Shown in pieces: positions 8,891 to 59,937 of a stretch of 64,000 nt of DNA. The DNA is taken from IMG/VR virus record IMGVR_UViG_3300045988_183727. One strand, given 5' to 3'. How positions within the stretch are numbered: the stretch's first letter is position 1; each line of letters opens with the position of its first letter. Origin of the DNA: a virus. The notes under the pieces were generated by a model. That model saw only the letters and a list, made by a program, of their open reading frames with translations. It ran no database searches and was not told the DNA's origin. The translations under genes and the position numbers were made by a program.

Positions 8891-11206
8891 TTGGGAGCTT
8901 TTAATGCCTGCTGTGAAAGGTCGTGTTTCCACATTAAACTAATACTGGCTGAAAAGAAACAGCTTGGCGATTTGATTGCCCAAGCTATTCCCGGTACAGC
9001 ACATTATGACCGTGGTGCAACCGTGAAAGGTGAATATGTAATCGTCTGTTCGCAAGGACATCTTCTTTCTCTGAAGGAGCCTGAGGACTATGATGTCGCG
9101 TTTGGAAAATGGGAGTTGTCTGCCTTGCCGATTTATTTTCCGAACTGGCAAACAAAGGTGAAAGAGTATAACGGGAGAGGCGTGAATCCCAACGAGCGCG
9201 TTTCGCGCATTGGGGAGCTTTTGAAGCAGTGTTCCTGTGTAATCCACGCAGGAGACCCTGATGAAGAGGGGCAGCTTCTTATTGACGAGCTGCTTCGCTG
9301 GCACGGTTATCGTGGACCCGTTTACCGTTTGGCGACGGGCGACACCTCTATCCCTGCGCTGCAGCGTGCGCTCAATAACCTCAAGGACAACCGTCTCTTT
9401 GAGAACATGGGGTGGTCTGCTTACGCACGGAGCGTTGCCGACCTTATGGTTGGTGTGAATATGAGCCGATATTATTCGCTGGTCAACAATGCTTCGCTGA
9501 CAGTTGGACGTGTGCAGTCTCCTACTCTTGGGCTTGTGGTCGAGCGTGATATGCTTATCGAAAACCACGTAAAAACTAAATACTATGAGGTCTCAGCGAA
9601 GACTTCTATTGAGGGTAAGGTCGTTGAGACGAAGTACAGGCCGAAGAAAGATGACCCGCATCTGACTGATGGGCTTATCTTGGATAGACCTTACGCGGAG
9701 AGCAAGTCTGTGATGATTTCCGGAAAACAGTTCTCAGGGGCTGCCGTTACAAAAAAGATTTCCAAAGAACAACCGCCTTTGCCGTTTGATATGCTGGAAT
9801 TGCAGGGCTACTGTTTGAAGAGTTTCGGCTACAAGCTGGACGACACCATGGAAATCACGCAGTCTTTACGCGATAACTACAACGCCATTACATATAACCG
9901 TACTCAGGTGCGATATCTCCCCGAAAACTACTTTGCGGAAGCTCCTGCCACCTCCCGTACTGTTATCGCAAACATAAACACGGTAGGAAAGGGAAATTTC
10001 AACCCTATTCTTGGTATGGACTTCAAGACGAAGGGGCGGTGCTTCGACGATTCTAAAATTGAAGCGCATTTTGGTATCATTCCTCAAAATGTGAGTCTCG
10101 ACCTCAACAAGATGACGGAGCGGGAACGAAACGTATATCTTGCCATTTGTAAGTATTATCTTATCCAGTTCTTTCCGCCCGCTGAGAAGGAAACAACAAA
10201 GCTGGTTGTCCCGCTGCCGGACGGCGCCACTTTAGAGGCGTCCAGCACTGGTGTGCTGAAACCCGGTTATCTCGTGATGATGCGCGAAGGTGTAGATACG
10301 CCCACAGCGTTGAGTATGATACCCGCCGGCAGTTACGGTGCTTTTGTTTCCGACGCTCAGGTCTTAGAGAAGGAAACAAATCCCCCTCCTCGTTACACAC
10401 AGTACACACTGGCGAAGGATATGAGCCGTATTGCCAAGTATGTTACCGACCCATTCATCAAGAGCACTCTGCTGAAGAAAGATGCCGACGTGGAAGAGAA
10501 TAACGGGGCTATCGGCACCAGCGCAACACGGGACCAGATAATCTCCGGTCTCATTTCAAGAGGGTTCTTGCAGGAAAAGGGGAAGTCCCTTATTTCCACT
10601 CCACTTGGACGCGAGTTGTATCGCATTCTCCCCGATTCCCTTCGTGGACCGGACCTCACCGCCTTGTGGTGGGTCATTCAAGAGGAGATACATGAGGGGA
10701 AGGCGACGCCGGAGAAGCTGGAACAAAACGTTCTGGCTATGCTCAAAGATTTCCTGCAGCAACCGCATCCTAAAGTGGACCCCAACATTGTCCCGACAAG
10801 GAAGGGATTCACGCCGATAGGAGTCTGTCCTCGCTGTGGTGGGAACATCATAGAGGGGAAAATGGGCTTTGGTTGTTCCAACTGGAAGAGTGGATGTAAG
10901 TTTACCATCTGGAAAAAGCCAAAACCGACTCTGTTCCAGCACATCACATTCACAGAGAAGGATGTCAAAAACTTTCTCGCTGGAAAGCCTGTCCATAAGA
11001 CGAAGCTGACCAAGAAGGACGGCGGTACATTTGCGGCAGACCTTGTGATGGATGACAGTCAGCGCAGTGATTGGGGCCCGAACTTTACGCTTCAGTTCAA
11101 CAGCACCAAACCCGCAGGAGCCTCCTCGCGCTCTGGTGGTGGTCGTTCCGGTAGTCGCAGTACGTCGCGTGGTTCTTCGCGGAGTCGGCGCTCTGGACGT
11201 CGGTGA
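8891..11206 (+). CDS. topB: DNA topoisomerase III (type IA)
   Basis: N-terminal KLILAEK motif, TOPRIM motif DPDEEGQ, GRVQSPTL motif, C-terminal zinc ribbon CPRCGG...C..C, and an Arg/Ser-rich tail. The start is uncertain: TTG at 8891 in the ORF track, and there is no in-frame ATG before the conserved N-terminus. Confidence 0.85.
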   Translation: MGAFNACCERSCFHIKLILAEKKQLGDLIAQAIPGTAHYDRGATVKGEYVIVCSQGHLLSLKEPEDYDVAFGKWELSALPIYFPNWQTKVKEYNGRGVNPNERVSRIGELLKQCSCVIHAGDPDEEGQLLIDELLRWHGYRGPVYRLATGDTSIPALQRALNNLKDNRLFENMGWSAYARSVADLMVGVNMSRYYSLVNNASLTVGRVQSPTLGLVVERDMLIENHVKTKYYEVSAKTSIEGKVVETKYRPKKDDPHLTDGLILDRPYAESKSVMISGKQFSGAAVTKKISKEQPPLPFDMLELQGYCLKSFGYKLDDTMEITQSLRDNYNAITYNRTQVRYLPENYFAEAPATSRTVIANINTVGKGNFNPILGMDFKTKGRCFDDSKIEAHFGIIPQNVSLDLNKMTERERNVYLAICKYYLIQFFPPAEKETTKLVVPLPDGATLEASSTGVLKPGYLVMMREGVDTPTALSMIPAGSYGAFVSDAQVLEKETNPPPRYTQYTLAKDMSRIAKYVTDPFIKSTLLKKDADVEENNGAIGTSATRDQIISGLISRGFLQEKGKSLISTPLGRELYRILPDSLRGPDLTALWWVIQEEIHEGKATPEKLEQNVLAMLKDFLQQPHPKVDPNIVPTRKGFTPIGVCPRCGGNIIEGKMGFGCSNWKSGCKFTIWKKPKPTLFQHITFTEKDVKNFLAGKPVHKTKLTKKDGGTFAADLVMDDSQRSDWGPNFTLQFNSTKPAGASSRSGGGRSGSRSTSRGSSRSRRSGRR

Positions 11207-11976: not shown

Positions 11977-12636
11977 ATGGCGACATATATTGCGCTGATG
12001 CGGTGGAACGGCTACTCTGTGCAGGAAATTGCTGATACCTTTGGCATTTCCCGGCAGCAGGTGTATCTGCATCTGCAGAAGATTCCTTTTCCTAATGATA
12101 AGGCCAAAAGGTATCCTCGTCCCGCACTGAATGAAGAGCAGGTGAGGGCTGTGGTCGGTTTTTTTGTCGCGAATAAGGACGCGCCCATATCCGCTGCTTC
12201 AGAGACAACGGGCATTCCTGTTGCGGATGTTGTGATGCTTTGCAACAATATCCGTGGCGCTCATTCGTGGTATTTCAGCGAGGGTTATCCTCTCATTGCG
12301 GATTATCTGAACAGGGAGGGAGTTACGCTTGATTATCTGGAACAGATGGCTGGCGTTCAGGGACTCGCACAGTATATTTTTTCCACATACCCCTACAAGG
12401 AGATGCCGAAGGCTCGTGCTGCTGCGGTAGCCGCAGTAATTGACGTTCCCGCAGACAAGCTGATGGAGGTGGCTGTTGCGTCCGGAAATATGGCCACAGG
12501 TGTGGCAACATCGGATGAAATGGCATTGGTCATCGGCTCAGTAACCGGACGCGAAGCGAACTCGCGGCTCTTTTTCCGTGGACGCCGTATCAAACCTTCT
12601 TTCTCTGCAACTGGAGGTGGTTCTTGTGGTGAATAA
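11977..12636 (+). CDS. HTH-domain protein (sigma-70 region-4-like / DNA-binding)
   Basis: ATG at 11977 after ggggtgag. MATYIALMRWNGYSVQEIADTFGISRQQVYLHLQK is a helix-turn-helix motif. Confidence 0.5.
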   Translation: MATYIALMRWNGYSVQEIADTFGISRQQVYLHLQKIPFPNDKAKRYPRPALNEEQVRAVVGFFVANKDAPISAASETTGIPVADVVMLCNNIRGAHSWYFSEGYPLIADYLNREGVTLDYLEQMAGVQGLAQYIFSTYPYKEMPKARAAAVAAVIDVPADKLMEVAVASGNMATGVATSDEMALVIGSVTGREANSRLFFRGRRIKPSFSATGGGSCGE

Positions 12637-12709
12637 ATCTGGACCTGACCTCCAGAGCGATATCGTCGTCGATACTCGCGATTATCCTGAAGCTCTGCAG
12701 CGCCTCACG

Positions 12710-19629: not shown

Positions 19630-19717
19630 GGAGAGGTGGCCGAGTGGTTGAAGGCACCGGTCTTGAAAACCGGCGATGCGAAAGCATCCGTGGGTTTGAA
19701 TCCCACTCTCTCCGCCA
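19630..19717 (+). tRNA. tRNA-Ser(TGA), long variable arm, CCA encoded
   Basis: ggagaggtggccgagtggttgaaggc D-arm, anticodon loop cttgaaa, extra arm, T-arm gtgggtttgaatcccac, acceptor 3' strand tctctcc followed by g then cca. Confidence 0.85.
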
Positions 19718-19728
19718 AAAAAAAACAA

Positions 19729-20053
19729 GTACGGACGGTATAACCGGAATTAACGCCTGTGGAGATGCATGGTCGTCGCGGAAGCAGGAATACTCTGTTG
19801 GCTGGCAATCACGTGAGAGGTGACGACCAGCACCTTGGGGGAACTGAATACCTGTGCTGGGTATACACCACCCAGAAATAGCAGGGTACTATACCACAAG
19901 ATGCCGCACGTTGAATTTGAGTGGCGGTATACACCACCCAGAAAAAAACAGGGTACTATACCATCTCATTGCACACTGGCATATACCCGTTATCGTAAAG
20001 GATATGTCACGGTTAGGGGTATACACCACCCCGAAATAACAGGGTTGTATACC
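19729..20053 (+). repeat. R1: ~130-nt conserved structured core plus 3 degenerate 36-nt GTATAC units; abuts the tRNA-Ser 3' end
   Basis: The core gtacggacggtataaccggaattaacgcctgtggagatgcatggtcgtcg...cctgtgctgg recurs at 20125, 50345, 51812 and 53259. Confidence 0.6.
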
Positions 20054-20098
20054 TCGGTATGACGATTATATCCGAAGGAAGCTCATTATCCAAGGAAA

Positions 20099-20250
20099 GT
20101 GTGCAATGATTGCACACTTAAAGACGTACGGATGGTACAGCCGGAATTTACGCCTGTGGAGACGAACTCCGTCGTAGAAGCAGGAACTTCCCATGGCTGA
20201 ACACCGCGTGAGAGGCGGTACAGCACCGAGGTGAGAGCACCTTGGGGAAC
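20099..20250 (+). repeat. R2: 19-nt perfect palindrome gtgtgcaatgattgcacac plus a diverged core copy
   Basis: The same palindrome precedes R3 at 50304. The core diverges after ggggaac. Confidence 0.5.
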
Positions 20251-20280: not shown

Positions 20281-20691
20281 ATGATTGTTTGTATGGCTGA
20301 TTACTTCAAAGTCGTATATTCGCGGGAGCTCTCCTCAGAATATGAACCGCGTTACATTGTCATACAGCCCAAGACTGGTGCGGTATTGGATGATGCCCAA
20401 GGTTTCGGCTACACGAGCCGCGAGAAGGCGGCAAAGGCATACACCTACAAGAAGATGCCGCATCCCGAACAGCGGTCTCTGGCGGCCCGCAAACGCCGCG
20501 TTGAGAAGTGGTGTCTGGAACACCTTGATGTGGTAGATGGTTATGCTGACATCTGCTTACAGCATATGAAGGCATCGGGAGATGGACGTATCAGTATGAG
20601 TTCTGCTGTTGTCTCCCGTTATTTGAAGGACTGCGGATACGATAATCTGCCGTTCTCGGCACAGGACTTTATCCGCTACTGTAAAACTTGA
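20281..20691 (+). CDS. hypothetical protein
   Basis: ATG after ggaagggcg; in-frame inside ORF 20242..20691. Confidence 0.45.
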   Translation: MIVCMADYFKVVYSRELSSEYEPRYIVIQPKTGAVLDDAQGFGYTSREKAAKAYTYKKMPHPEQRSLAARKRRVEKWCLEHLDVVDGYADICLQHMKASGDGRISMSSAVVSRYLKDCGYDNLPFSAQDFIRYCKT

Positions 20692-29844: not shown

Positions 29845-30036
29845 ATGTATATATAGAAAAAGACAATCACTGCCCGAAAAGGGAAGTGATTGTCTGAATT
29901 TATGATGTGACTTGAAAAACGGAGATAAAACTCCTTATAAAAATATCTTCGTAATTATACTATTATACTACCACGTTTCGCTATTTTGTCAACAGCAGCA
30001 ACGTAAAAAAAGAAGCTCCCGAAGGAGCTTCTTTTG
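29845..30036 (-). promoter_or_regulatory. cassette A: upstream-operon terminator + promoter + GGAGAYAARNCTCC palindrome + leader hairpin with U-run
   Basis: Terminator 30005-30035; -35 tgtcaa 29987-29992; palindrome 29921-29934; leader hairpin gacaatcact...agtgattgtc 29857-29898. Confidence 0.55.
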
Positions 30037-36197: not shown

Positions 36198-36227
36198 GCG
36201 TTTACTCCTTTCGTTTTTACTTGTTCT

Positions 36228-36414
36228 GAATATATAAAAAGACAGTCGTTCCCAAATGAGAACAACTGTCTTGAATATGATGATGTGACTGAAAACGGAG
36301 ATAAATCTCCTTATAAAAATATCTTCGTAATTATACTACTATACTACCACAATTCTTTATAATGTCAACGGAAACGGTACAAAAAAAGAAGCCCCCGAAA
36401 GAGCTTCTTTTTAA
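36228..36414 (-). promoter_or_regulatory. cassette B: terminator + promoter + palindrome + leader hairpin with U-run
   Basis: Terminator 36381-36412; -35 tgtcaa 36363-36368; ggagataaatctcc 36297-36310; hairpin 36236-36274. Confidence 0.55.
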
Positions 36415-40159: not shown

Positions 40160-40214
40160 ATTTTTCTCCTTTCTCCCAGCCTGTGTTAAGGTCTTATGGG
40201 AACAAAAATGTAGT

Positions 40215-40402
40215 GAATATATAAAAAGACAGTCGTTCTCAAAAGAGAACAACTGTCTTGAATGTGATGATGTGACTGAAAACGGAGACAAAGCTCCTTA
40301 TAAAAATATCTTCGTAATTATACTACTATACTACCACATTTCCTTATAATGTCAACGGTTTCGACGCAAAAGAAAAGAGCCGCACAGCGGCTCTTTTCTT
40401 TA
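40215..40402 (-). promoter_or_regulatory. cassette C: terminator + promoter + palindrome + leader hairpin
   Basis: Terminator 40367-40402; -35 40350-40355; ggagacaaagctcc 40284-40297; hairpin 40224-40262. Confidence 0.55.
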
Positions 40403-43217: not shown

Positions 43218-43249
43218 TGTGTTTTCTCCTTTCTTATTGTGTTGTAATG

Positions 43250-43440
43250 TAAAAAAATATATAAAAAGACAGCTATCCCTGTCTTGGGATAACTGTCTTG
43301 AATACTTGGTGTGACTGGAAGCGGAGATAAGTCTCCTTATAAAAATATCTTCGTAATTATACTATTATACTACCACAATTATTTATAATGTCAACAATGG
43401 CAGAGAAAAAAGAGGCGGCTTTCGCCTGCCTCTTTTTTTA
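43250..43440 (-). promoter_or_regulatory. cassette D: terminator + promoter + palindrome + leader hairpin
   Basis: Terminator 43405-43439; -35 43389-43394; ggagataagtctcc 43323-43336; hairpin 43264-43300. Confidence 0.55.
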
Positions 43441-48867: not shown

Positions 48868-49229
48868 CTTTATCTGCTTATTTGTCCTGTGTTTTTCGGA
48901 CAACATCGGTGAGCGCAAAAGTCGCCTGAAGCGTGAGAAGCGAGCTGCCTGCATCTGTTTTGCGGGCGGTGGCGTGATAAGGGTGAAACTCTGCGCTTTC
49001 AGTAGCCGTAAGCAGGTGAGCAAAAGTCTCTGCGAACGCCTGCATGGTTCGCGGGACAAGGGAAGCCGGAAAAATAAGTAAACGCGGGCCGAGCGCAGAG
49101 GTTGTTGGCGTATTCCAGACGTGGGTGCTGCCTTTTATGCTGTGCTTGTTTGCGTGGGGTCCGGTGTTCTCGCAGTCTGGATGGTTGCTGCGAGAGGTGC
49201 CAAAACTTATTGCGAAAGGACGGAGTTCT

Positions 49230-50288
49230 ATGCCAACTACATTTCAAGCGTTTAAGTATCGCATTTACCCGACTGATGAGCAGGTCGAAATCATTGAAAA
49301 GACTTTCAAGTGCTGCCGGTTTGTGTGGAACCATTTCCTTGAGCGAACCTCCAAAATCTATGACCGTCGGCAGGAAAAGATGACGACCTTCGACTGTATG
49401 AAGGTTCTCACGGAGATGCGGGAGCGCTGGCCTTGGCTTGCGGACTGCGGCTGTACGGCAGAGAGATATGCCATCATTGATTTGTTTGAGGCGCGAAAGG
49501 CGTTCTTCCGCCGCATTAAAGCGGGGGAGAAGCCCGGTTATCCCAAATTTAAGGGCGCGTCCCATCCGACACAGAGTTTTACGACCGCTGGTACTATCTA
49601 TGTGACGGACGATTACATTCAGGTTCCGTTTGGAGGACAGTATCAGAAAATCAACAAGCTCAGGCGAGGGACGGGGCGCCCCATCGAAGGGTCTCCCCGC
49701 GAGGTCACTATTTCTCGGTCTGCTACCGGAAAATACTGGGCATCTGTCTGCTGTAAAGTAGAGCGAGACACGCTGCCTATTGTGGACGGCGAGGTGGGAA
49801 TCAGTCTCGGCCTGAAGGAGTTGGCTATTGACAGCAACGGCGTTCACTATGAGAACCCGAAGCATCTGAGCAAGTCTGCAAAGCGGTTGGCACGTGAGCA
49901 GCGGCGTCTATCCCGCAAGAAGAAGGGCTCTGTCAACTACGAGAAGCAGCGGCGCAAGGTAGCCGGCGTCCATGAGCATATTGCCAATCAGCGCAATGAC
50001 TACCGGCATAAAATCAGCCGTGAACTTGTCAACGCAAACCAGCTTATTGCCGTTGAGAAGGTGGCCGTTAAGCCCTTAGTTGAGGGCAATGAGCAGGCTA
50101 AAAGCATCCTCGATGCCGGCTGGTCTGAACTTACCGGTATGATAAAGTATAAGGCGGACTGGGCTGGACGCACTCTGGTGGACGTAGATACCGCCACCGT
50201 AGCACCGGAAGCCAAGCATGATGAGGCACTGGCACAGGTCGTGCTGTCCGAAGGTCAGCGCATGGCTTCCGAGCAGAAGCCTGCCTAA
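49230..50288 (+). CDS. TnpB-like (IS605 OrfB family) protein, probably nuclease-dead and C-terminally truncated
   Basis: N-terminal FKYRIYPTDEQ. RuvC-I reads GISLGLKELAIDSNG, so Ser replaces the catalytic Asp. RuvC-II IAVEKV. ILDAGWSELTGMIKYKADWAGRTLVDVD. There is no zinc finger or RuvC-III; an unrelated 30-aa tail follows. Confidence 0.75.
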   Translation: MPTTFQAFKYRIYPTDEQVEIIEKTFKCCRFVWNHFLERTSKIYDRRQEKMTTFDCMKVLTEMRERWPWLADCGCTAERYAIIDLFEARKAFFRRIKAGEKPGYPKFKGASHPTQSFTTAGTIYVTDDYIQVPFGGQYQKINKLRRGTGRPIEGSPREVTISRSATGKYWASVCCKVERDTLPIVDGEVGISLGLKELAIDSNGVHYENPKHLSKSAKRLAREQRRLSRKKKGSVNYEKQRRKVAGVHEHIANQRNDYRHKISRELVNANQLIAVEKVAVKPLVEGNEQAKSILDAGWSELTGMIKYKADWAGRTLVDVDTATVAPEAKHDEALAQVVLSEGQRMASEQKPA

Positions 50289-50303
50289 AGCCGAGCGAGG
50301 AAA

Positions 50304-50563
50304 GTGTGCAATGATTGCACACATTGCCAAGGAAATAAAAACGAGTACGGACGGTATAGCCGGAATTAACGCCTGTGGAGATGCATGGTCGTCGTGGAAG
50401 CAGGAATACTCTGTTGGCTGGTAGTCACGTGAGAGGTGGCACCAGCGCTTTGGGGAACTGAATACCTGTGCTGGGTATACACCACCCGGAAATAACAGGG
50501 TTGTATACCAATTCATGGCGTCTCCTTTTGGTATACACCACCCGGAAATAACAGGGTTTTACC
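50304..50563 (+). repeat. R3: palindrome gtgtgcaatgattgcacac + ~130-nt core + 2 GTATAC units, directly downstream of the TnpB-like gene
   Basis: Palindrome 50304-50322; core 50345-50474. Confidence 0.6.
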
Positions 50564-50663
50564 ATTCGTAATTATAGTTCTTCCCTCCGCTGTGTGGAGC
50601 GTTTTGTCGAAATGACAAAACATTCCTCTTAAATTCTTAAAAACAAGAAAGGAAATAAAGAAT

Positions 50664-51242
50664 ATGGAACCTTCTATCAACAGAACTCTCACCGTCAGCG
50701 TCGTCAGCTATGGCGTCGTATCTGTCGTCAATGGAGTCATCAACGTTGACAACCAGAACCCCATCGAGTTTCCCGCCGTGCTGGACGAGGCATCCGCTGC
50801 CAAGCTGCTGAAGAGCAGATACGGCGGCAAGCTGTTCCCCGTGGATGCAAATATCGTCGTGTCTTCCATCCGGCATGAGAAGTGGAAGTTCTCTATGGAC
50901 CTGAGCCAGTTCGTCGCTACCGCTGCCCGCAGCCGTGTGGACGGCACCGCATCCGAGGCCGACGATGCCCCCGCAGAGGACATCCCCGCCACTGAACCTG
51001 CTGTTCCCGCGCCTGAGACGACTCCCGCTGCTTCTCCTACTATCCCCATGCCTCTGGTCTCTGAGCCTGAGGAGGATTTTGCGCCTGCTACTCCCGAAGC
51101 GCCTGCTCCCACCGGTGGTTTCGCTCCTGAGACTCCCACTCCTGCACCTGATGCTCCCGCCAAGGAAGTTCCCTATGGTGGTAACTTCAATTTCCCCTCT
51201 GACTTCGGTGGCGACTTCGGTTCCGGCTTTTTCGGCGGTTAA
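50664..51242 (+). CDS. hypothetical Pro/Ala-rich protein
   Basis: ORF track; RBS aaggaaataaagaat. Confidence 0.5.
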   Translation: MEPSINRTLTVSVVSYGVVSVVNGVINVDNQNPIEFPAVLDEASAAKLLKSRYGGKLFPVDANIVVSSIRHEKWKFSMDLSQFVATAARSRVDGTASEADDAPAEDIPATEPAVPAPETTPAASPTIPMPLVSEPEEDFAPATPEAPAPTGGFAPETPTPAPDAPAKEVPYGGNFNFPSDFGGDFGSGFFGG

Positions 51243-51248
51243 TAACCG

Positions 51249-51416
51249 ATGGATGTCGTGAACGTTGGACGTGGATGCCTTGATTGCATCAATAAGGAAA
51301 CTCCGACGAATAAAGAACCCTGTAAGAGCTGTTCCCGCTGGAATAGGTGGGAACCTGACGAAAAGTGTAAGGAAAAGATGGCGGTCAAAGCCGCACGTGA
51401 AAGGACGAAGAAATGA
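51249..51416 (+). CDS. 55-aa zinc-finger mini-protein
   Basis: C..C...C..C motifs. The stop overlaps the next ATG (ATGA). Not in the ORF track. Confidence 0.35.
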   Translation: MDVVNVGRGCLDCINKETPTNKEPCKSCSRWNRWEPDEKCKEKMAVKAARERTKK

Positions 51417-51730
51417 GCAACACCAATACACCTGAAAAGCCCGTCGTCGTATTCATCAGTAATGACCACGATACCGTCATTGGTGTGATGGTCATTAAGA
51501 ACGACGATGAAAACCTGCAGAACAATCTCGAAATCATTGAGAAAAACTGGGTTGCTGCTCGTAACGAGTTGCTCCAGCGGGCTCGTGAGGACGATAGCAT
51601 TGAAGCAGACGAGGACGAGCTTCACATCGCATTCATCGCACACGAGTTGGGGATGTTCGACGAGCCCTATGAGACTATCGACATCTCCGGCGTTTACTCC
51701 GTCTCCAATGGGAATGTGGACCGCATCTAA
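51413..51730 (+). CDS. hypothetical acidic protein
   Basis: ORF track. Confidence 0.45.
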   Translation: MSNTNTPEKPVVVFISNDHDTVIGVMVIKNDDENLQNNLEIIEKNWVAARNELLQRAREDDSIEADEDELHIAFIAHELGMFDEPYETIDISGVYSVSNGNVDRI

Positions 51731-51753
51731 GTTGGTCTTGGCAGCAGACACAC

Positions 51754-51792
51754 AGCGGCGCAGGCCCTACTCCGGCGGCTGCGCCGCTTTTC
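51754..51792 (+). terminator. rho-independent terminator
   Basis: agcggcgcag ... ctgcgccgct tttt. Confidence 0.5.
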
Positions 51793-51811
51793 GCTAAATA
51801 CCTAAAAGCAA

Positions 51812-52155
51812 GTACGGACGGTATAACCGGAATTAACGCCTGTGGAGATGCATGGTCATCGTGGAAGCAGGAATGCTCTGTTAGCTGGTTTTCATGTGAG
51901 AGATGATGCCAGCAGCTAAGGGAACTGAATATGCCTGTGTTGGGTGTATGAGGCCCTGAAATGACAGGGGTGTATACCATATAATCTGTCGCTTGAGGAG
52001 ACAGGCGTATAGAGCCCAGAAATAACAGGGTTGTATACCCCTTAACCGCGCTCCAACTTTCAATCCTAAGGTGTATAAGGGCCTGAAATAACGGGGTGAT
52101 ACCTCAGTTATTCCTTTTAGGTACATAACGGGCTAAAACAACAGGGTAGTGTACC
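51812..52155 (+). repeat. R4: core + 4 GTATAC units
   Basis: The core carries compensatory substitutions in its terminal stem (ccagca/tgttgg). Confidence 0.6.
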
Positions 52156-52221
52156 AGATTATATATGATATGGGTGTAGGTATTCGTTTAGGACAACTTG
52201 AAGTTGAAAGGAGGTCTCTGG

Positions 52222-52743
52222 ATGGCCTCAAAAAAGATATATAGTTCCCCTGAACTCTATGAGGACAAGTTGGTGCGCGTAATGGCGCGGCTTGGTATCG
52301 AAGAAGGCGACTACAACTACGACTGGAGTCGTCAGGAGTGTTGGGTTGAGTTCAGGTACAAGGGTGAGCTTTACCGCTTCTCCCATAGCGTGAAGAACGC
52401 CCAAGAGCACGGCATCTCCCTGCAGTACGGCTCCGATGCCTTCGCACAGGTCGTGCTTTCTTTGGAAGACCTCGCCCGTATGGTCGAACGTGGCATCTAC
52501 GACCTGTCCACATGGGTGGCCGGAATGAGAGCTCTGCCGGAGCGCTCAAAGTCCTTGGATGCCTGTTTCATTGCTCTCGGCTTTGTAGAGCCGCCCACAT
52601 CCAAAGAAGAAATCACACTCCACTACCGCCGGTTGGCGAAGGTGTATCACCCTGATGCCGGTGGCGATAGCTCCTCATTTGATGCGCTGTCTAACAACTA
52701 TGCGAAATGTATGGAGATTTTCGAGGAGGTTGCCAACAAATAA
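52222..52743 (+). CDS. J-domain (DnaJ-like) protein
   Basis: HPD motif in LAKVYHPDAGGD; RBS gaaaggagg. Confidence 0.65.
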   Translation: MASKKIYSSPELYEDKLVRVMARLGIEEGDYNYDWSRQECWVEFRYKGELYRFSHSVKNAQEHGISLQYGSDAFAQVVLSLEDLARMVERGIYDLSTWVAGMRALPERSKSLDACFIALGFVEPPTSKEEITLHYRRLAKVYHPDAGGDSSSFDALSNNYAKCMEIFEEVANK

Positions 52744-53252
52744 TGTATATGTCTCAGAAAGAGTTCAACGCTATGATGAAGAAAAACCCCCGCCTCCGTG
52801 TTCACGGTGCAAATAACAATACCCGCGAACATCGCTCCAAAGCGAATAAGGCGGCAAAATATAGAAATGTAAAGGTCTACGAGTATGCCGATGGGCTGGC
52901 TTTTTTCGGTAAGCCCCGCAATAATGGTGAAATCCCTATCGCTGTCTTTGACAGCAAGAAGGAGTACCACCGCTGGAAAGAGCTTCAGATTTTGGAGCGC
53001 GGCGGACATATCCACGACCTTCGCCGGCAGGTGCCTTTGACCATCATTACCGAGTTCGAGTATCGTGGTCAGAAGGTCTCCGGTATTACTTACAAAGCCG
53101 ACGCCGTCTATGTGCGCGACGGCAAGTGTGTGGTAGAGGACGTGAAGCCCTTCGATACCACAACGCAGAAGTATCGAACTACAAAGGATTTCAACCTCAA
53201 GTGGAAGCTGCTCAAGGCTGAATATCCTACTTGGTCTTTTGAAATCTATTAA
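52743..53252 (+). CDS. DUF1064-like phage protein
   Basis: FDSKKEYHRWKELQILERGG block; the start overlaps the upstream stop (TAATG). Confidence 0.55.
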   Translation: MYMSQKEFNAMMKKNPRLRVHGANNNTREHRSKANKAAKYRNVKVYEYADGLAFFGKPRNNGEIPIAVFDSKKEYHRWKELQILERGGHIHDLRRQVPLTIITEFEYRGQKVSGITYKADAVYVRDGKCVVEDVKPFDTTTQKYRTTKDFNLKWKLLKAEYPTWSFEIY

Positions 53253-53258
53253 AAACGA

Positions 53259-53533
53259 GTACGGATGGTATAACCGGAATTAACGCCTGTGGAGATGCAT
53301 GGTCGTCGTGGAAGCAGGAATACTCTGTTGGCTGGTAATCATGTGAGAGATGATACCGGCACCTTTGGGGAACTGAATATGCCTGTGTCGGGTATATAGA
53401 ACCCTGAAACGACAGGGTTGTGTATCACAGAATAACTGCGGCAGCGGCATATATGGCTCTGAAACAACAGGGTTGTATACCGCATAAAAAAGGCTATGGT
53501 GTGTAATACCCTGAAATAACAAGGTTGTGTACC
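53259..53533 (+). repeat. R5: core + 3 GTATAC units
   Basis: Terminal stem ccggca/tgtcgg, compensatory relative to R1. Confidence 0.6.
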
Positions 53534-53714
53534 CCATAACATATTGTTTCTGAAAGTGGTGGACGGCAAGTGGAAAATCTGAGCAACATCCGGTGGCGAG
53601 TTCATCTGTAAGACCTGCTACGGTGGAGGGAGCGGTATTTTCCTTGCCTACTTCGACCTCGTGCAGTGAGTGATTGCAGGGCTTTCGACGGTTCCGCAAA
53701 TTTGTTCGTTCCAA

Positions 53715-53797
53715 GAACTTGACAAAATATCGAATTATAGTAGTATAGAATTATAAGGAAGGACAGTCTAACACAGACTGTCCTTCCGCTTTTTTAT
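53715..53797 (+). promoter_or_regulatory. cassette E (plus strand): promoter + leader hairpin with U-run
   Basis: ttgaca 53719-53724; tagtagtatagaattataagga is shared with cassettes A-D; hairpin aggacagtct aacac agactgtcct followed by gctttttt. Confidence 0.45.
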
Positions 53798-53820
53798 GCT
53801 CAGAAAGGGGATGACAATTT

Positions 53821-54615
53821 TTGGGAAACACAAGCAAAAAGCACGTAAAATGGGGGATTTTCAAGACTGCACTTTTTACGTTCCTGTTCGTCGCAGTATC
53901 CGTTTTCTACTTTCTCTCCACCAACGTGACACTCGCACAGGCCGAAGAACGCTCGAACCACGAATCACCTCCTGCAGCAGAGGTTGCCGCCCAGATGGAC
54001 GACACCAAGCTGTCAGAAGAAGCGCAGCAAGATGTTTTGGTGCTGAAGGAAGGAATCCTCGACCCGCTTTCCGACATCACGGAAGCAGAGAACTCTGAAG
54101 ATGACCCCGACGCCGTGGAGGAAGTACAGGAAGTCGTTCCGACAGTCTGTTCCTACTGCGGCTCTGAGAACCATAGTTCCTCAATCTGTGCAAAGAGGTC
54201 TATCGCCAATGGTGCCTATGGGCGCTGGGTGATTCCGTCTGTTGGCTGTAATGTAGCGGCCTACTCGTGTAACTGGGATGCAGACCAATCCTATGTTCAG
54301 GAAATTACTGACAGTTCCGACAGTGCAGCTTTCTTGACTTGCGGCGGCGTTGGTGTTCTTGCGGACCACAATAACCAAGGTTTCTGTGGACTTTCCAATA
54401 TTTCTGTTGGCGCAAAAGCCTACATGGATTTTGGTGATGGTGCAACTTACTACGAGTGCTATCAGGTTGAATATGGACACAATACCGGCGAAAAGATGCT
54501 CGATGGAAATGGAAACATAATGAGCTACAGCAACTATTCTTCCGGCACCGTGATTTGCTACACCTGCCTTGACCACTGGACCAACATTTACATCACTTAC
54601 TGGACGCCGGTATAA
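53821..54615 (+). CDS. secreted/membrane-anchored sortase-fold-like protein, paralog 1
   Basis: TTG start after aaagggga. Signal/TM helix, an acidic linker, and a C-terminal domain with CSYCGS..H, IPSVG, ADHNNQGF and TVICYTC (a TLxTC-like motif). Confidence 0.5.
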   Translation: MGNTSKKHVKWGIFKTALFTFLFVAVSVFYFLSTNVTLAQAEERSNHESPPAAEVAAQMDDTKLSEEAQQDVLVLKEGILDPLSDITEAENSEDDPDAVEEVQEVVPTVCSYCGSENHSSSICAKRSIANGAYGRWVIPSVGCNVAAYSCNWDADQSYVQEITDSSDSAAFLTCGGVGVLADHNNQGFCGLSNISVGAKAYMDFGDGATYYECYQVEYGHNTGEKMLDGNGNIMSYSNYSSGTVICYTCLDHWTNIYITYWTPV

Positions 54616-54654
54616 GCGCCAGACACCCACTCTACTCTAAGAAAGGACAAAACC

Positions 54655-55455
54655 GTGAAAACGAAATTCAAAATCCCTCGGTGGGCACTCTTCACCGTTA
54701 TCATTCTGTCCTTTATCGGTGGTCTCTTTGCCATCTCCATGCTGCCTGCTTTCGCATCACGTGAAAGCTCTCCGCCTTTGGCAGTAGCAGAAGCCGCGCA
54801 GAACGAGGAAAAGGACGCAAATTCTGATGCTCAGACTCCCGAAGCAAACGAGACATCCGATGAGCATGGAAGCACTGAAACTCCCGTAGAGGACGAGCCT
54901 CAGGCAGACGATGCTGTCGTCGTTGAAGTGACTCCCTCCGAAGAGCCTGTTCAGGAAACTCCAACCACCTGTTCCTACTGCGGCAGCGTAGAACACACCA
55001 AAGACTACTGTGCCGTCCGTGCCGTGGACAATGGCGCCATTGGACGGCTCCGGATTCCCTCTGTCGGTGTTGACGTGGCTGTTTACGACGTCACTTGGTA
55101 CTCTCTGCAGCACACCACCGAAGGCGATAACTACGCGCAGGCCGTTACAGATGCATGGGACAGCGCCGCACAAATCGTCTATCTCGGCCAGACCGTTATT
55201 GGCGACCATAATAATCAGGGCTTCTCCGCCATCAACAACTGTGCCGAGGGCACTTACTCCTACATCGACATAGGCGACTCTGTCCTGACCTATGTTTGTA
55301 CCGGCATCCAGCATGGTCGCAACCCCGGTGGCTATCTTACCGGAGCCGATGGCGATAGCATCTATACCTCTTACTTCAATCCCAATGGTCTGACGCTGTA
55401 TACCTGTCTCGACCACAACTTCAATGTTGCCCTTGTGACATTCCAGCCTGCTTAG
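54655..55455 (+). CDS. sortase-fold-like protein, paralog 2
   Basis: Same architecture; GDHNNQGF and TLYTC motifs. Confidence 0.55.
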   Translation: MKTKFKIPRWALFTVIILSFIGGLFAISMLPAFASRESSPPLAVAEAAQNEEKDANSDAQTPEANETSDEHGSTETPVEDEPQADDAVVVEVTPSEEPVQETPTTCSYCGSVEHTKDYCAVRAVDNGAIGRLRIPSVGVDVAVYDVTWYSLQHTTEGDNYAQAVTDAWDSAAQIVYLGQTVIGDHNNQGFSAINNCAEGTYSYIDIGDSVLTYVCTGIQHGRNPGGYLTGADGDSIYTSYFNPNGLTLYTCLDHNFNVALVTFQPA

Positions 55456-55489
55456 GCTATTTAAGATTTGATGTGGGAAACCCACAAAA

Positions 55490-55659
55490 AGTCTTATAGC
55501 CACAGCCACACCGACGTGTGTAAGTCTTCTCTCAGGTAGAGGCGACGGATGCACCTGCGGGTTTTCCCAGCTCGCAGCTCTGCCAAGCATACGCCGAGGT
55601 AAGGGAGACATTACCGCCTCCTCCGGAGGCGAGACACTACTGAAAGGAGATGAGCGCAC
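55490..55659 (+). ncRNA. putative IscB omegaRNA / HEARO RNA region
   Basis: 170-nt non-coding, GC-rich, hairpin-dense sequence between the left inverted repeat and the iscB start. Confidence 0.45.
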
Positions 55660-57144
55660 ATGACGATGGTCTATGTGCAAAATAAAGACGGTAAACCTTT
55701 GATGCCGACAACTCGCTATTGTTATGTGCGCCTTCTCCTGAAGGAGAAGAAAGCACGAGTTGTTTGCACTACCCCGTTTACCATCCAGTTGAACTATGAT
55801 ACCCCAGACATCACCCAAGACTTGATTCTTGGCATCGACCCCGGCAGAACGAACATTGGTGTCGCTGTCGTCAAGGAGGACGGCCAATGCGTGTTCTCCG
55901 CACATCTGGAGACGCGCAATAAGGACGTACCTCTTCTGATGCAGAAGCGTGCCGGTTTCCGTAAGCAGCATCGCACGTTGGACCGGCGCCGCAAGCGCCA
56001 GCGTCGTGCGAAGGCTGCTGGGACCACCGTTGCCGGGGGTTCTGTCGAGAGATTGCTCCCCGGCTATGAGAAGCCCATTGTGTGCCACCATATCCGCAAT
56101 AAGGAGGCGCGGTTCAATAACCGTAGCCGCCCTGTGGGATGGTTGACACCTACAGCAAATCACCTGCTGCAAACCCACATCAACCTGATTGCAAAGGTTG
56201 CGAAGTTCTTACCTATCACGAAAGTGGTGGTGGAGCTGAACCGCTTTGCATTCATGGCGATGGATAATCCCAATATCCGTCGGTGGGAGTACCAGCAGGG
56301 GCCGTTGTACGGACTGGGTTCCGTGGAGGATGCGGTGTACGCACAGCAGGATGGACATTGCCTGTTCTGCAAGAAGCCCATTGACCATTACCATCATGTT
56401 GTTCCACGCCACAAGGGTGGAAGTGAGACGCTGGCTAACCGGTGTGGGCTTTGTGCGAAGCATCACGACCTCGTCCATAAGGACAAGGCGTGGGCGGATA
56501 AGCTGGTCACACGCAAGGAAGGTATGAATAAAAAGTACCACGCCTTGAGTGTTCTGAACCAGATTATCCCGCATCTCATGGAGTATCTCGGAGGCGAGAC
56601 TCTCTACGATGTCTATGCCACGGATGGTAAGTCCACCAAGGGCTTCCGCGTTGCCAAGAACGTGCCGAAAGAACATTACACGGATGCCTACTGTATCGCC
56701 TGTTCCATTTTGGATGCGAATACGAAGGTCTCCACACCTGCCGAACCCTTTAAGCTGAAGCAGTTCCGTCGGCACGACCGGCAATCCTGCATCCGCCAAA
56801 TGGTTGACCGGAAGTACCTTCTGGATGGCAAGGTCGTTGCAGCAAACCGGCATAAGGCCATTGAGCAAAAGTCCGATAGCCTGCAGGAGTTCCGTGAGGC
56901 TTACGGCGATGCTGCGGTATCGCAGCTCACCGTGAAACCTCACTCGCCCCAGTACAAGGACATGACTCGTATCATGCCGGGGGCGGTGATGGATTTCGGT
57001 GGCGCTGTCGGGATTCTTCAGGGGTCGGAAGGCTTCCATAACGGCAAGCCGGACTACTATAAATCTACGAAAGGAGAACGGGTTTTAACGAGGAGATGTG
57101 CGCTTCTCGCACAGAACGCAGGCATGGTTTTCATTCCCGCCTGA
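55660..57144 (+). CDS. iscB: IscB RNA-guided endonuclease (HNH + split RuvC), apparently intact
   Basis: PLMP motif (KPLMPTTRY), Ruv[11 protein letters not shown], Arg-rich bridge, HNH motifs (C..C...HH..N..C..C..H), RuvC-II VVVELN, RuvC-III HYTDAY. Confidence 0.85.
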
Positions 57145-58359: not shown

Positions 58360-59937
58360 ATGCCTACAGAAAGAAAGAAGAAAACAACAAAAGAAGAAAA
58401 CGCAAAAAATAACTCAACAAAAAACACAATAAAAAAACCAAGAAACTCAACAAGTAACACGAAAAGCAAGAAAGAAAGCAAGTCTCTTTTGGGGTTAAAG
58501 GACCTGATGGAAGATACGTCTCCAGAAAAAGTCGTCGGCTGTTATGTTCGTGTATCTACCGATGCACAGGCGGAGCAGGGATATTCTATACCTGACCAAA
58601 CAGCCAAATTGCAGGCCTTTTGTACCGTAAAAGGCTGGGAGAACGCGAAATTCTACACGGACCCCGGATTCAGCGGCAGCAACTTAAATCGACCGGCAAT
58701 GCAGGAAATGATATCCGATGCGATGGAAGGGAAGCTGAAGGCGGTTGTCGTCTTCAAGCTGGACCGTCTCTCCAGAAGTCAGAAGGATACTCTTTATTTA
58801 ATTGAGGATGTGTTTCTTCCGAACGAAGTGGATTTTGTAAGCATTTCCGAGGCCCTTGACACTACCACTCCATATGGACGAGCGATGATAGGTATTTTGA
58901 GCGTCTTCGCCCAGTTGGAACGCGAGAATATCTATATGCGAACCCGTATTGGAATGATGGGTCGTGTAAGCGCGGGGTATTGGCGTGGCGGCGGAAACGT
59001 TCCGTTTGGCTATGATTATGACAAGACAAGCAAATCCCTTATCCCAAATGCTGACGCGCCAAAAGTGCCACAGGCTTACGACCTCTACATCAAGGGCTAT
59101 AGTTGCCAGAAAATTGCGGATATGCTCGGACTAAGTAGCGAACAGCTCGTGAGGAATATTCTCACCAAGCGCACATATTGCGGCTACATCAACTACAAAG
59201 GCAAAGACTACAAGGGTTTCCACGAGCCTTTGATTGATGAAGAGCGGTTCATGCTCGTGGCTGCAGAAATGGAACGCCGTGGGAAGGAAAACCTCGCAGT
59301 CTGCGGCAACAATAAATATTATCTTCTTACCGGGCTTGTTTTCTGCGGAGATTGTGGCGCCAGAATGCGGTACATGAAGTGGGGGAAGTATATCCGTATC
59401 GTCTGCTACTCGCACACGTGTAAAAAGAACATGGTTAAGGACCCCGATTGTCCAAACAAGGGCGTTCGCGCAGATGAACTTGAGAAGGTTGTTATCTCAA
59501 AACTTTTTGACATTGGTACTGACATTTCTCTCGACGATTTTGACGACACCCACGTGCCTGCAAGTGCAGCAGAAATCCTGACGAACCGGATAGATGAGCT
59601 GAAGGAGTCTCTCAGGCGCCTATATGGGCTCTATGCCGACATCGGAGACCCCATGGTGTACGAGCGCATTGAGGATGTGCGAGGACAGCTCCACGTATTG
59701 CAGAGACAGCTTGCAAGCGAGGAAACGCAGAAACTCAAGGAAGAGCACATCAACTACGTCCGTGAGAAAATTCAGACTATTGGAGACCTCTGGCCCCATC
59801 TTACTCCTATGGAGCGCCAAACTCTTGTTCGTGATTGTGTTGAGAAGGTTATTTTGCATCACAACGGACGTGTTGAGGTTTACTACACTTTCCATACTGA
59901 GAAAGATAGTAAAATTCTCAAAAGGAAAGGCGCATAA
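58360..59937 (+). CDS. large serine recombinase (phage integrase type)
   Basis: YVRVSTDAQ with the catalytic Ser, KLDRLSRS, a recombinase domain and a C-terminal zinc ribbon. The Lys-rich 49-aa N-terminal extension may not be translated; an alternative ATG lies at 58507. Confidence 0.8.
   Translation: MPTERKKKTTKEENAKNNSTKNTIKKPRNSTSNTKSKKESKSLLGLKDLMEDTSPEKVVGCYVRVSTDAQAEQGYSIPDQTAKLQAFCTVKGWENAKFYTDPGFSGSNLNRPAMQEMISDAMEGKLKAVVVFKLDRLSRSQKDTLYLIEDVFLPNEVDFVSISEALDTTTPYGRAMIGILSVFAQLERENIYMRTRIGMMGRVSAGYWRGGGNVPFGYDYDKTSKSLIPNADAPKVPQAYDLYIKGYSCQKIADMLGLSSEQLVRNILTKRTYCGYINYKGKDYKGFHEPLIDEERFMLVAAEMERRGKENLAVCGNNKYYLLTGLVFCGDCGARMRYMKWGKYIRIVCYSHTCKKNMVKDPDCPNKGVRADELEKVVISKLFDIGTDISLDDFDDTHVPASAAEILTNRIDELKESLRRLYGLYADIGDPMVYERIEDVRGQLHVLQRQLASEETQKLKEEHINYVREKIQTIGDLWPHLTPMERQTLVRDCVEKVILHHNGRVEVYYTFHTEKDSKILKRKGA

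Follow-up and report, generated by a model that had tools for sequence, protein, structure and literature searches.

Cas12 is thought to have evolved from TnpB through duplication of omegaRNA segments into arrays and splitting of the guide RNA (PMC13565253; PMC10691335). The arrays of the TranC and type V-U CRISPR systems, which comprise a few repeats of 32–38 nt and are found in gut Clostridia and in phages, are likewise thought to have arisen by omegaRNA segment duplication (Jin et al., Cell 2025, as summarised in PMC13565253 and bioRxiv 10.64898/2026.03.27.714800; Altae-Tran et al., PNAS 2023, PMC10691335). About 50 independent TnpB-array associations, together with omegaRNA arrays for inactivated TnpBs, are on record (PMC13565253; PMC10691335), and the TranCs characterised there are active nucleases that use a split guide composed of a tracrRNA (trans-activating CRISPR RNA) plus a crRNA (CRISPR RNA) (PMC13565253; bioRxiv 10.64898/2026.03.27.714800). 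For the RpoE-linked (sigmaE-associated) dCas12f/TnpB clade, multi-guide omegaRNA arrays that serve an inactivated TnpB-family protein have been described. The TldRs are described, in the available part of the text, as using a single guide RNA (gRNA), in which the guide is fixed and directed at a promoter of the host (fliC, oppA) (Wiegand et al., bioRxiv 10.1101/2023.11.30.569447); in that part, neither "multiple guide" nor "multiple gRNA" occurs, and "array" appears in an unrelated sentence only. The present analysis concerns a 64,000-nt stretch of viral DNA, IMG/VR virus record IMGVR_UViG_3300045988_183727, referred to in its full length as the window. It encodes a TnpB homologue with damaged nuclease motifs, designated dead TnpB, and carries five copies of an omegaRNA-type scaffold module (R1–R5), four of which continue directly into short repeat-spacer arrays. 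The locus unites two described states, a selected but nuclease-damaged TnpB and a set of several scaffold-headed arrays with ongoing spacer turnover. We consider it probable that these components constitute an element-borne, nuclease-dead TnpB/TranC-like (type V-U-like) CRISPR interference (CRISPRi) system that silences a rival element.

Dead TnpB matches the Pfam families OrfB_IS605 (4.5e-25) and HTH_OrfB_IS605, but only the first 24 of the 60 positions of the TNB/zinc-finger domain. It is 37% identical over residues 5–321 to the active IS605 TnpB of locus L122. The PDB comparison gave E values of 1.9e-49 for ISDra2 TnpB and 1e-11 for LaTranC, and the nearest full-length relatives are 48–53% identical. 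In the RuvC-I motif Asp is replaced by Ser (GISLGLKE as compared with GLDVGLKD), and a 28-residue deletion removes the zinc finger with both of its CxxC pairs. Both changes are conserved in the members of the dead clade, at 79–100% identity and including the relatives that are 88% and 79% identical. The ratio of nonsynonymous to synonymous substitution rates (dN/dS) relative to the 88%-identical orthologues is 0.076 at a dS of ~1.05 and, together with the conserved damaged state, indicates a selected protein and not a dead gene. The initial annotation of this DNA, which was made by a model from the letters and open reading frames (ORFs), had spoken of a dead TnpB-like gene in front of one module copy; the nuclease motifs are indeed damaged, but the gene is under strong purifying selection. 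According to Wiegand et al. (bioRxiv 10.1101/2023.11.30.569447), any mutation of the catalytic DED residues abolishes cleavage by TnpB, and the first TldR screen required two DED changes. From that rule and the zinc-finger deletion we infer that cleavage activity has been lost.

The number and placement of the modules agree with the initial annotation, which had proposed five intergenic copies on the plus strand, one of them starting 12 nt after tRNA-Ser. A search of the window with a 29-nt core pattern, in which up to three mismatches were allowed, identified four copies with at most one mismatch, all on the plus strand (19729, 50345, 51812, and 53259), and dinucleotide shuffles gave no match. 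The fifth and more divergent copy, R2, was added by a repeat finder at 20120/20126 (family D8). The mean column identity of the five-copy alignment is 78%, and R1, R3, R4, and R5 are 129–132 nt in length. All five copies are intergenic, and the junction between tRNA-Ser and a module is kept in several relatives. R2 has its 5' two thirds in common with the other copies and a different 3' part, after which no repeats are found; the downstream gene starts near 20282–20294, and scaffolds of the R2 type are also present in L041 and L084. A perfect palindrome, GTGTGCAATGATTGCACAC, lies 8–22 nt upstream of R2 and R3 in a context that is kept in many relatives, and may function as an operator, as a processing site, or as the stem of a terminator lacking a U tract. 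Only R3 adjoins the TnpB-like gene, and the other four modules are detached from it. No sigma-70-like promoter was identified between the upstream genes and the modules, or directly upstream of the modules, so that they are probably co-transcribed with the upstream genes.

The structure of the module RNA was assessed through within-class stem covariation in 56 distinct copies of the module family. The 5' 70 nt of the scaffold are almost invariant and its helices still pair: P1, P3, P4a, P4b, and P4c are 91–100% paired within the class, with true compensatory changes in P4c, and true double changes occur in the apical hairpin UCAC-GUGAGAG-GUGA (C-G 17/U-A 22 and A-U 48/G-C 5). The initial annotation had assigned the covariation to a terminal stem, CCAGCA/UGCUGG; covariation is real, but it resides in the apical hairpin, whereas the informative pair of the terminal stem is formed in only 38 of the 56 copies (A-U 25, G-C 9, G-U 4, against A-C 15) and a helix that is 96–100% paired, GCUGG/CCAGC, competes with it. 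The broader proposal of a folded, strand-specific element is upheld. Three features mark the subfamily found in the window: its core spans 38 nt, its P4 is expanded and has a GUGAGAG loop, and its tail reads GGGAACUGAAUA. A conserved linker, CCUGUGnnG, joins the scaffold to the first hairpin repeat. The covariance-model check recommended at the outset matched no family in the modules: the whole window yielded only tRNAs against Rfam 15 at the gathering threshold, and at E<=10 the region 49000–56000 gave three chance-level matches, all of them elsewhere than in the modules.

Several other structural assignments were considered and rejected. An H-type pseudoknot, ACGgACGG/UCGUCGU, was dropped because the homologues show a local P3 hairpin at this point (GAUG/CGUC, GACG/CGUC, GAUUGCC/GGCGGUC, and others), and a single-strand DNA promoter or leading-region signal (Frpo-like) was rejected because of the many G-U pairs on the gene-sense strand, which are A-C on the other. 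There was no Rfam match to STAXI; an HDV-like (hepatitis delta virus-like) or theta ribozyme after the tRNA would need the nested double pseudoknot, which is absent, and also has no Rfam match; and repeats of type III toxin-antitoxin systems or solitary repeats of RNA anti-CRISPRs do not agree with spacers that are unique and regular, nor with the lack of an Rfam match.

The module is very probably derived from a TnpB omegaRNA scaffold. A pattern made up of its two most conserved blocks, ACGCCTGTGGAGA ... GAAGCAGGAA, matched at least 112 stretches in IMG/VR, and a looser version in which the P2 helix was left free matched 120 stretches in GTDB genomes, mostly of Lachnospiraceae and also of Aquifex and several archaea. 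The common plan of these scaffolds comprises UA, the P1 hairpin, GAAUUAACG, CCUGU, GGA, the P3 hairpin, nnnGAA, GCAGG, AA, and the P4 hairpin, and ends in (U)AGUUCAC or GGUUCAA, after which the sequences are unrelated. Five of the six P1 pairs have 7–14 double changes each among 27 diverse scaffolds. P2 is seen in five Watson-Crick forms (CCTG/CAGG, CCCG/CGGG, TTTG/CAAA, CTTG/CAAG, and CTCA/TGAG). In L122 the tnpB gene, which encodes 367 residues, stops ~6 nt before P1. When 26 copies of the insertion sequence (IS) were compared by all-versus-all BLAST, the commonest end point of homology fell exactly after ...GTTCAC, and the left end reads TTGAA/ATAAGGCTACC (the slash marking the boundary), followed by a hairpin that resembles P4. 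The scaffold plan, the covariation of P1 and P2, the adjacency to tnpB, and these end points identify the broad family as the IS605-type TnpB right end, or omegaRNA scaffold. In many metagenome-assembled genomes (MAGs) the motif lies 25–150 nt from a contig end, which is the signature of a multi-copy element.

The window module has the core P1 / GAAUUAACG / CCUGU-GGAGA / P3 / GAAGCAGGAA in common with hundreds of IS605-type tnpB right ends. An abundant active relative, P0011, has an omegaRNA whose 3' end, ..AAAGGUUGAAUAU, is matched by the tail of the window module, GGGAACUGAAUA, and a module variant in L026 is matched as well; the tail is therefore the true 3' end of the scaffold, and the sequence that follows occupies the position of the guide. 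The idea of a multi-copy omegaRNA-like guide, raised in the initial annotation, is in essence correct, as shown by the common core and tail. The window copies have no transposon ends, with no ..TCAC/..TCAA cleavage site and no left end at any of them, and instead of the flanking-DNA guide seen in canonical copies, a conserved linker and a repeat array follow the module. The canonical scaffold of the IS605 right end gives a match to the Rfam family RAGATH-18 (RF03064) that is below threshold (27 bits, gathering score 44.9, E=0.0035) and spans its CCUGUGGAGA..GAAGCAGG core, whereas the window modules have no Rfam match at E<=10. In some relatives the third module slot (L026 at ~3354, equivalent to L256 at ~8016) holds a variant with a 3' domain of the P0011 type that ends in ..AAAAGGTTGAATAT with no repeats after it, and helps to place the boundary between scaffold and guide. 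The scaffold core GAAUUnACGCCUGUGGAGA..GAAGCAGGAA.., followed by a hairpin and ..GUCAC or GUUCAC, is also present in a MAG of Aquifex aeolicus (L114), and the core recurs in archaea (L130, L171, L173, L175, and L212; Methanoperedens, Methanobacteriota, and ANME-2); its occurrence in deep-branching bacteria and archaea implies that this omegaRNA architecture is very widespread.

Directly after R1, R3, R4, and R5 there are 11–12 copies of a ~36-nt hairpin, GGTATACAccaCCCgGAAATAACAGGGttGTATACC, spaced 50–66 nt apart (family D3), which the initial annotation did not report. The module is not a stand-alone RNA; a CRISPR-like repeat-spacer array has it as its head (leader or scaffold end). The geometry of the arrays was derived from ~340 related loci (2.6 Mb), in which a run contains 1–7 repeats. 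The mode of the repeat period is 66 nt (36 + 30), which accounts for 192 of 393 intervals, with 257 of 393 at 65–67 nt. In a set of 72 distinct internal spacers, 43 have a length of exactly 30 nt. Every array is on the plus strand downstream of a module and ends in a spacer, not a repeat. Arrays orthologous to A3 have 0–7 units in the relatives. Among the related loci, L249 has seven units, and in L241 four 36-nt repeats, nearly identical throughout and fully so in the first three, are followed by four spacers that all differ, three of them exactly 30 nt long. The 30-nt spacer of A4 (CCTTAACCGCGCTCC...) is common to 20 related loci. In the repeat, conservation exceeds 90% over the 3' half, and the variation of the 5' half is chiefly due to transitions after which G-U pairing persists, a pattern that fits retention of the 3' part as the crRNA handle; the repeats are strongly divergent within arrays. 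The exact repeat was present in 61 stretches of human-gut metagenomes, in small arrays only, which apparently have this same layout and contain no more than four consecutive exact repeats. The omegaRNAs of active relatives include hairpins whose arms have the same GUAUAC sequence, and in the module class the guide scaffold is unsplit. A comparison of the 3' half of the repeat with the ..GGGGUGUAUACA end of the omegaRNAs of two active-looking relatives, P0005 and P0010, was only suggestive because these loci are conserved for >35 nt beyond it and the boundary between scaffold and guide is not established there.

Near-identical elements that differ in the array after dead tnpB have their module-distal spacers in common and differ in the module-proximal ones. 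Thus, the spacer group 23-24-25-26 is preceded by 21,22, by 15,27,28, by 29,15, or by nothing, and the group 3-4 is preceded by 5, by 10,5,11, by 12,13,14, by 14, or by 31, as in growing CRISPR arrays. Across the related loci the arrays display constant repeats, near-constant spacers, polarised turnover, and matches to foreign elements, the general features of CRISPR arrays; cas1 and cas2, which belong to a complete CRISPR-Cas locus, are absent from the window ORFs. We regard it as highly probable that the hairpins form genuine spacer-acquiring arrays.

A dead TnpB of full length and 87–100% identity is encoded on 25 IMG/VR contigs. The module follows the gene at ~64 nt in 20 of the 25 loci and lies downstream of it in 23, as well as at the P0003 locus (L263); two of the 25 had no module by the pattern used. 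Hairpin repeats follow the first module at 19 of the 25 loci and at L263. Among the matches listed, 20 of 21 IMG/VR contigs with this module class encode dead TnpB.

Ten distinct spacers have protospacers, defined by 0–3 mismatches, in MT835962.1 (L262) and L268–L275. MT835962.1, a human-faecal "phage" contig, was the only INPHARED record matched; three spacers from different elements (two internal and one terminal) hit one 225-bp region of it, and a local search raised the number to four or five. The region contains an HTH_17 excisionase gene (xis), followed by the gene (int) for a tyrosine integrase of 402–405 residues. Relatives of this integrase, located through a protein database and contig look-ups, supplied more protospacers, including perfect matches of 30–31 nt. 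Seven of the ten protospacers are in the 5' region or start of xis, in xis itself, or in int, and three are further downstream in L270; nine are on the xis-int strand. The flank is biased: the base at −1 is G in nine cases and A in one, whereas the array itself has C there, and the chance of G at a fixed position in nine of ten is ~3e-5 by a binomial estimate. Terminal spacers also have protospacers. No target was found for the sequence directly after the scaffold, and no spacer matched non-array sequence elsewhere in the 2.6 Mb collected, which is mostly from the element's own family. Searches of IMG/VR with the target Xis and Int proteins found nothing, and the module-array DNA had no match in INPHARED. 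A 12-nt match between the sequence after the repeat at 50530 and four D1 repeats (29946, 36322, 40309, and 43348) has no extension and, for ~370 nt of query, is at chance level; it was discarded.

The targeted xis-int loci (L262 and L268–L275) themselves carry a solo, truncated scaffold, consisting of P1-P2-P3, then GCUACUCUACAGCAGG and a strong hairpin, which is located ~190 nt upstream of the targeted xis. In MT835962.1, the one target checked, a sigma-70-like promoter precedes this scaffold, and the contig has no dead-TnpB gene. The solo scaffold could be a decoy for dead TnpB, a guide used in trans, or a result of shared ancestry. The locations of these and the other features are given in Table 1.

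Table 1. Location of the scaffold modules, arrays, and other features (window coordinates unless a locus is named)
Feature	Position	Strand	Remarks
TnpB homologue, dead (TldR-like/dead TranC-like effector candidate)	49230..50288	+	352 aa, from MPTTFQAFKYRIYP
Module R1	19729..19859	+	Begins 12 nt past tRNA-Ser(tga), 19630-19717
Module R2, divergent solo scaffold	20126..20250	+	No array; 3' end continues into 5' untranslated region of gene
Module R3, omegaRNA-type scaffold	50345..50473	+	57 nt after stop codon of dead tnpB
Module R4	51812..51942	+	Core pattern and alignment
Module R5	53259..53390	+	Core pattern and alignment
Array A1	19860..20083	+	3 repeats (19860, 19926, 20018), 30-nt spacer, 55-nt irregular interval, terminal spacer
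Array A3	50474..50593	+	2 repeats (50474-50509; 50530-50563, degenerate), 20-nt spacer, terminal spacer
Array A4	51943..52185	+	4 repeats (51943, 52004, 52070, 52120), spacers of 25, 30, and 16 nt, terminal spacer
Array A5	53391..53563	+	3 repeats (53391, 53446, 53498), spacers of 19 and 16 nt, terminal spacer
Palindrome GTGTGCAATGATTGCACAC	50304..50322	unstranded	Perfect, 19 nt, between stop codon of dead tnpB and R3
Palindrome GTGTGCAATGATTGCACAC, identical second copy	20099-20117	unstranded	Before R2
Solo scaffolds in target elements	L262 ~12540-12640 (minus-strand coordinate), L268 ~7567, L269 ~7255, L270 ~1595; L271-L275		
IscB-like protein, full-length	55660-57144	+	PLMP motif; Pfam RRXRR 2.4e-49; HNH-like motif CLFCKK... 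by eye
D1 repeat, ~166 nt, four copies	29846-30011, 36222-36387, 40209-40374, 43248-43413	minus (as read)	TTGACA...TAGTATAGT/TATAAT promoter-like boxes
1587-aa protein	37-4800	+	Internal repeat resembling SpaA/Cna-B motif (KTSEDGK), by eye
Topoisomerase	8891-11206	+	Pfam Topoisom_bac and Toprim

The mechanism proposed here, in its complete form in which dead TnpB acts as effector and the result is silencing, is judged somewhat more likely than not. The scaffold and dead TnpB would have been domesticated together on a large mobile element of human-gut Clostridia that carries 3–5 module units, which have the orientation of its genes and seem to be transcribed by read-through from the genes upstream. 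The array begins at the guide position with the linker CCUGUGnnG, after which the 36-nt hairpin repeats alternate with spacers of ~30 nt. Read-through transcripts may be processed to scaffold RNA and to guides that consist of a repeat-derived handle plus a spacer, with the scaffold provided in cis to the first unit but in trans to all others. The guides would load dead TnpB, which is predicted to bind matching DNA beside a 5' G and to block transcription with no cutting. The known targets are the promoter/start region of xis, xis, and int of a rival tyrosine-integrase element, and silencing, as opposed to cleavage, would spare the host when the rival sits integrated in the shared chromosome. 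More tentatively, and at clearly less than even odds, the locus may represent a natural intermediate in which a dead TnpB has acquired actively growing arrays, each array arises at the guide position of the unsplit omegaRNA scaffold, which also serves as the leader, there is no cas1/cas2 in cis and no anti-repeat, the outcome is a non-lethal "CRISPRi" against the xis-int of the rival, and the solo scaffold of the rival is a possible decoy.

A number of observations weigh against silencing by a dead TnpB with array-derived guides. Of the catalytic triad a single residue is substituted and two (the RuvC-II Glu and the last Asp) are kept, and the putative loss of nuclease activity is deduced from a literature rule and a deletion. 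No PADLOC or Pfam match to cas1, cas2, or cas4 was found among the 57 window ORFs, which thus offer no source for the strict 30-nt spacers. No anti-repeat was found either: the duplex of module and repeat has an energy of -21.9 kcal/mol as compared with -21.3 +/- 3.2 for shuffles, so that such pairing does not account for an association of hairpin-plus-spacer RNA with the large scaffold on which TnpB proteins depend. Pairing in the repeat hairpin reaches 94.5%, with no statistical covariation. The arrays of the window are partly decayed, with internal spacers of 16, 16, 19, 20, 25, 30, 30, and 55 nt, and no target was found for any of their spacers. Finally, all of the targets come from one element family, sampled at nine loci, and include one protospacer on the opposite strand and one with A at −1.

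Four other explanations were weighed against the interference system described above. Phages and plasmids can carry mini-arrays that serve the CRISPR-Cas system of the host, and the arrays could be orphans of this type, with the module as no more than their leader or promoter-proximal sequence and dead TnpB as a bystander or in a separate, single-guide role. Adaptation machinery in trans is implied by spacers that are strictly ~30 nt when the window has no cas1/2/4, the module has no anti-repeat, and element-borne arrays that borrow host machinery are known, for example type IV-A3 (bioRxiv 10.1101/2023.06.23.546257). However, every array starts where an omegaRNA guide would start and is fused to an omegaRNA-type scaffold, the ends of the arrays are spacers with protospacers, which is omegaRNA-like behaviour, and the omegaRNAs of active relatives contain the GUAUAC-armed hairpins. 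These features, the co-occurrence of the module class with dead TnpB on nearly all contigs among the matches listed, and the failure to find the exact repeat in a long array make the use of host CRISPR-Cas unlikely. A decaying relic, in which the scaffolds and arrays are neutral or incidental RNA structure with no present RNA-guided function, is slightly less likely again: the shortened and irregular spacers and degenerate repeats of the window, the strong divergence of repeats within arrays, and the damaged nuclease motifs would be expected of it, but the low dN/dS of the protein is maintained across a dS of ~1, the scaffold is almost invariant over its 5' 70 nt with helices that still pair, near-identical elements differ by recent and polarised spacer changes, and some protospacers match perfectly over 30–31 nt.

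The position of the modules, always upstream of and co-oriented with genes, is what the initial annotation had in mind in suggesting a conserved 5' leader, and in this respect the suggestion is accurate. A cis-acting leader of this kind, whether a riboswitch, a processive antiterminator, or a signal for RNA stability or processing, for which the likeness to omegaRNA would be only ancestral, would also be compatible with the probable co-transcription, with the switch that GCUGG/CCAGC and CCAGCA/UGCUGG could form as competing helices, and with the continuation of R2 directly into the 5' untranslated region of a gene. It does not account for the anatomy of the locus, namely the unique 30-nt spacers, the 66-nt period, the leader-proximal turnover, and the foreign matches with G at −1, and no Rfam family was matched; we regard it as distinctly unlikely on its own, and an effect in cis could accompany the guide role. 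The remaining candidates are non-autonomous IS200/IS605 derivatives, similar to palindrome-associated or miniature inverted-repeat transposable elements (PATEs or MITEs), that spread by transposition and whose hairpins are end palindromes bound by TnpA. The scaffold does have its origin in an IS605 right end, and in being palindromic the repeats recall the subterminal hairpins of IS200/605, but the modules are found at the same syntenic sites across dozens of elements, with none on the minus strand, the window copies lack a left end and the ..TCAC/..TCAA cleavage end, and no tnpA/Y1 transposase family is among the Pfam matches of the 57 window ORFs. A comparison of relatives, which the initial annotation had recommended as a check on mobility when it listed this alternative, showed that they differ in spacer content and not in the presence or absence of modules with target duplications. 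Spread by transposition is accordingly very improbable.

Some relatives of dead TnpB have different arrangements. The 79%-identical dead TnpB P0003 (L263, 6001-7047) looks chimeric in an alignment inspected by eye, in that residues ~40–170 are near-identical to the active IS protein P0011 and the rest matches the dead clade, which implies recombination of the domesticated gene with an active IS copy. A second, independent dead clade is represented by P0026 (L276, with its scaffold region at 2349-2700 after the gene), a protein of 320 residues with a RuvC-I Asp-to-Arg change and a truncated C terminus. Here a TTGACA-17-TATAAT promoter directly precedes a single scaffold with a covarying P2 (CCCGU/GCGGG), and a short guide-like stretch and a terminator follow, which is the classical TldR layout with no array. 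P0005 (L264/L265) and P0010 (L277/L278) are active-looking TnpBs of 370 and 384 residues that have an intact zinc finger, are 51–52% identical to dead TnpB, and are found in fixed phage contexts beside ERF or endolysin. After ..GTGTATACA, their omegaRNAs continue with nearly the same sequence, AT(C/G)TACCCACTGTAAATTAC, which suggests that they carry a conserved, domesticated guide rather than transposon flanks.

Elsewhere in the window, an IscB-like gene 2 kb downstream of the last array (A5) adds a second OMEGA-type protein to the same operon-like block; the 200 nt upstream of it contained no match to HEARO or any other Rfam family at E<=10. The promoter-like boxes of the D1 repeats precede minus-strand operons, and a D1-related promoter with a strong terminator hairpin is found at 53719-53797 on the plus strand, just before sortase-like genes. 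Of the 57 window ORFs, one matches the PADLOC Csx1 model (E=1.9e-26, flagged "found elsewhere"), and it was not among the ten large unannotated window ORFs tested. The context genes, among them those at 53821-55455 (+) and 58360-59937 (+), further encode a pair of secreted proteins that are sortase-like, of which one has a weak Pfam Sortase match, and a large serine recombinase; the window also carries YopX, DUF1064, and DnaJ-domain genes. The gene set is a mixture of phage-like and integrative and conjugative element (ICE)-like functions, and the relatives in IMG/VR are viral contigs of 40–190 kb.

In its RNA anatomy the locus resembles the omegaRNA/reRNA of TnpB, with P1, the GAAUUAACG junction, a P2 (CCUGU/GCAGG) that encloses P3, variable distal hairpins, and a short conserved 3' tail, and R3 comes straight after the tnpB-like gene and shares its strand. 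It differs in having no transposon end, no left end, and no tnpA, in the presence of 3–5 copies per element, most of which are away from the protein gene, and in the linker and repeat-spacer array that replace flanking DNA at the guide position. The protein is comparable to TldRs: it is a small and conserved TnpB homologue whose RuvC domain is damaged and whose zinc finger is gone, and the mobile element that encodes it has a scaffold just downstream of the gene; the RuvC-I change, the zinc-finger loss, and the conservation that characterise TldR proteins are all found, with one DED residue changed. As with TldRs (bioRxiv 10.1101/2023.11.30.569447), DNA binding is predicted here with no cleavage. 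Unlike the TldRs described there, the locus combines several scaffolds with variable arrays, one array to each, and its known targets belong to another mobile element.

The TranC and type V-U systems are similar in having a TnpB-sized protein, a short downstream array with few repeats, no adaptation genes nearby, and an occurrence in gut Clostridia. In contrast to these, the nuclease is damaged here, each array is headed by a fused, unsplit scaffold with no anti-repeat detectable, several arrays are interleaved with cargo genes, and dead TnpB is far closer to ISDra2 TnpB than to LaTranC. The naturally DNase-free type V effectors Cas12m and Cas12c likewise silence by RNA-guided binding with no cutting, but they, like sigmaE-dCas12f, represent different protein lineages and hosts, and in the RpoE-linked arrays the whole long omegaRNA (>60 bp) is repeated, whereas a 36-nt hairpin with 30-nt spacers is repeated here. 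If confirmed, the locus would provide a direct view of an array grafted onto an omegaRNA, an instance of spacer acquisition with no adaptation genes in cis, and a very small (352 aa) natural system for multiplexed DNA binding.

The type IV-A3 CRISPR-Cas systems of plasmids are alike in concept, as they are located on mobile elements, repress transcription with no nuclease, and direct their spacers against competitors (bioRxiv 10.1101/2023.06.23.546257). They have no adaptation genes of their own, and their spacers are acquired in trans (bioRxiv 10.1101/2023.06.23.546257). Their effector is a Class 1 multi-subunit complex with a DinG helicase and has no evolutionary relation to TnpB. The system proposed here would, if confirmed, be a Class 2 counterpart to these plasmid systems, in which the xis/int of a rival is silenced and the shared chromosome is left uncut.

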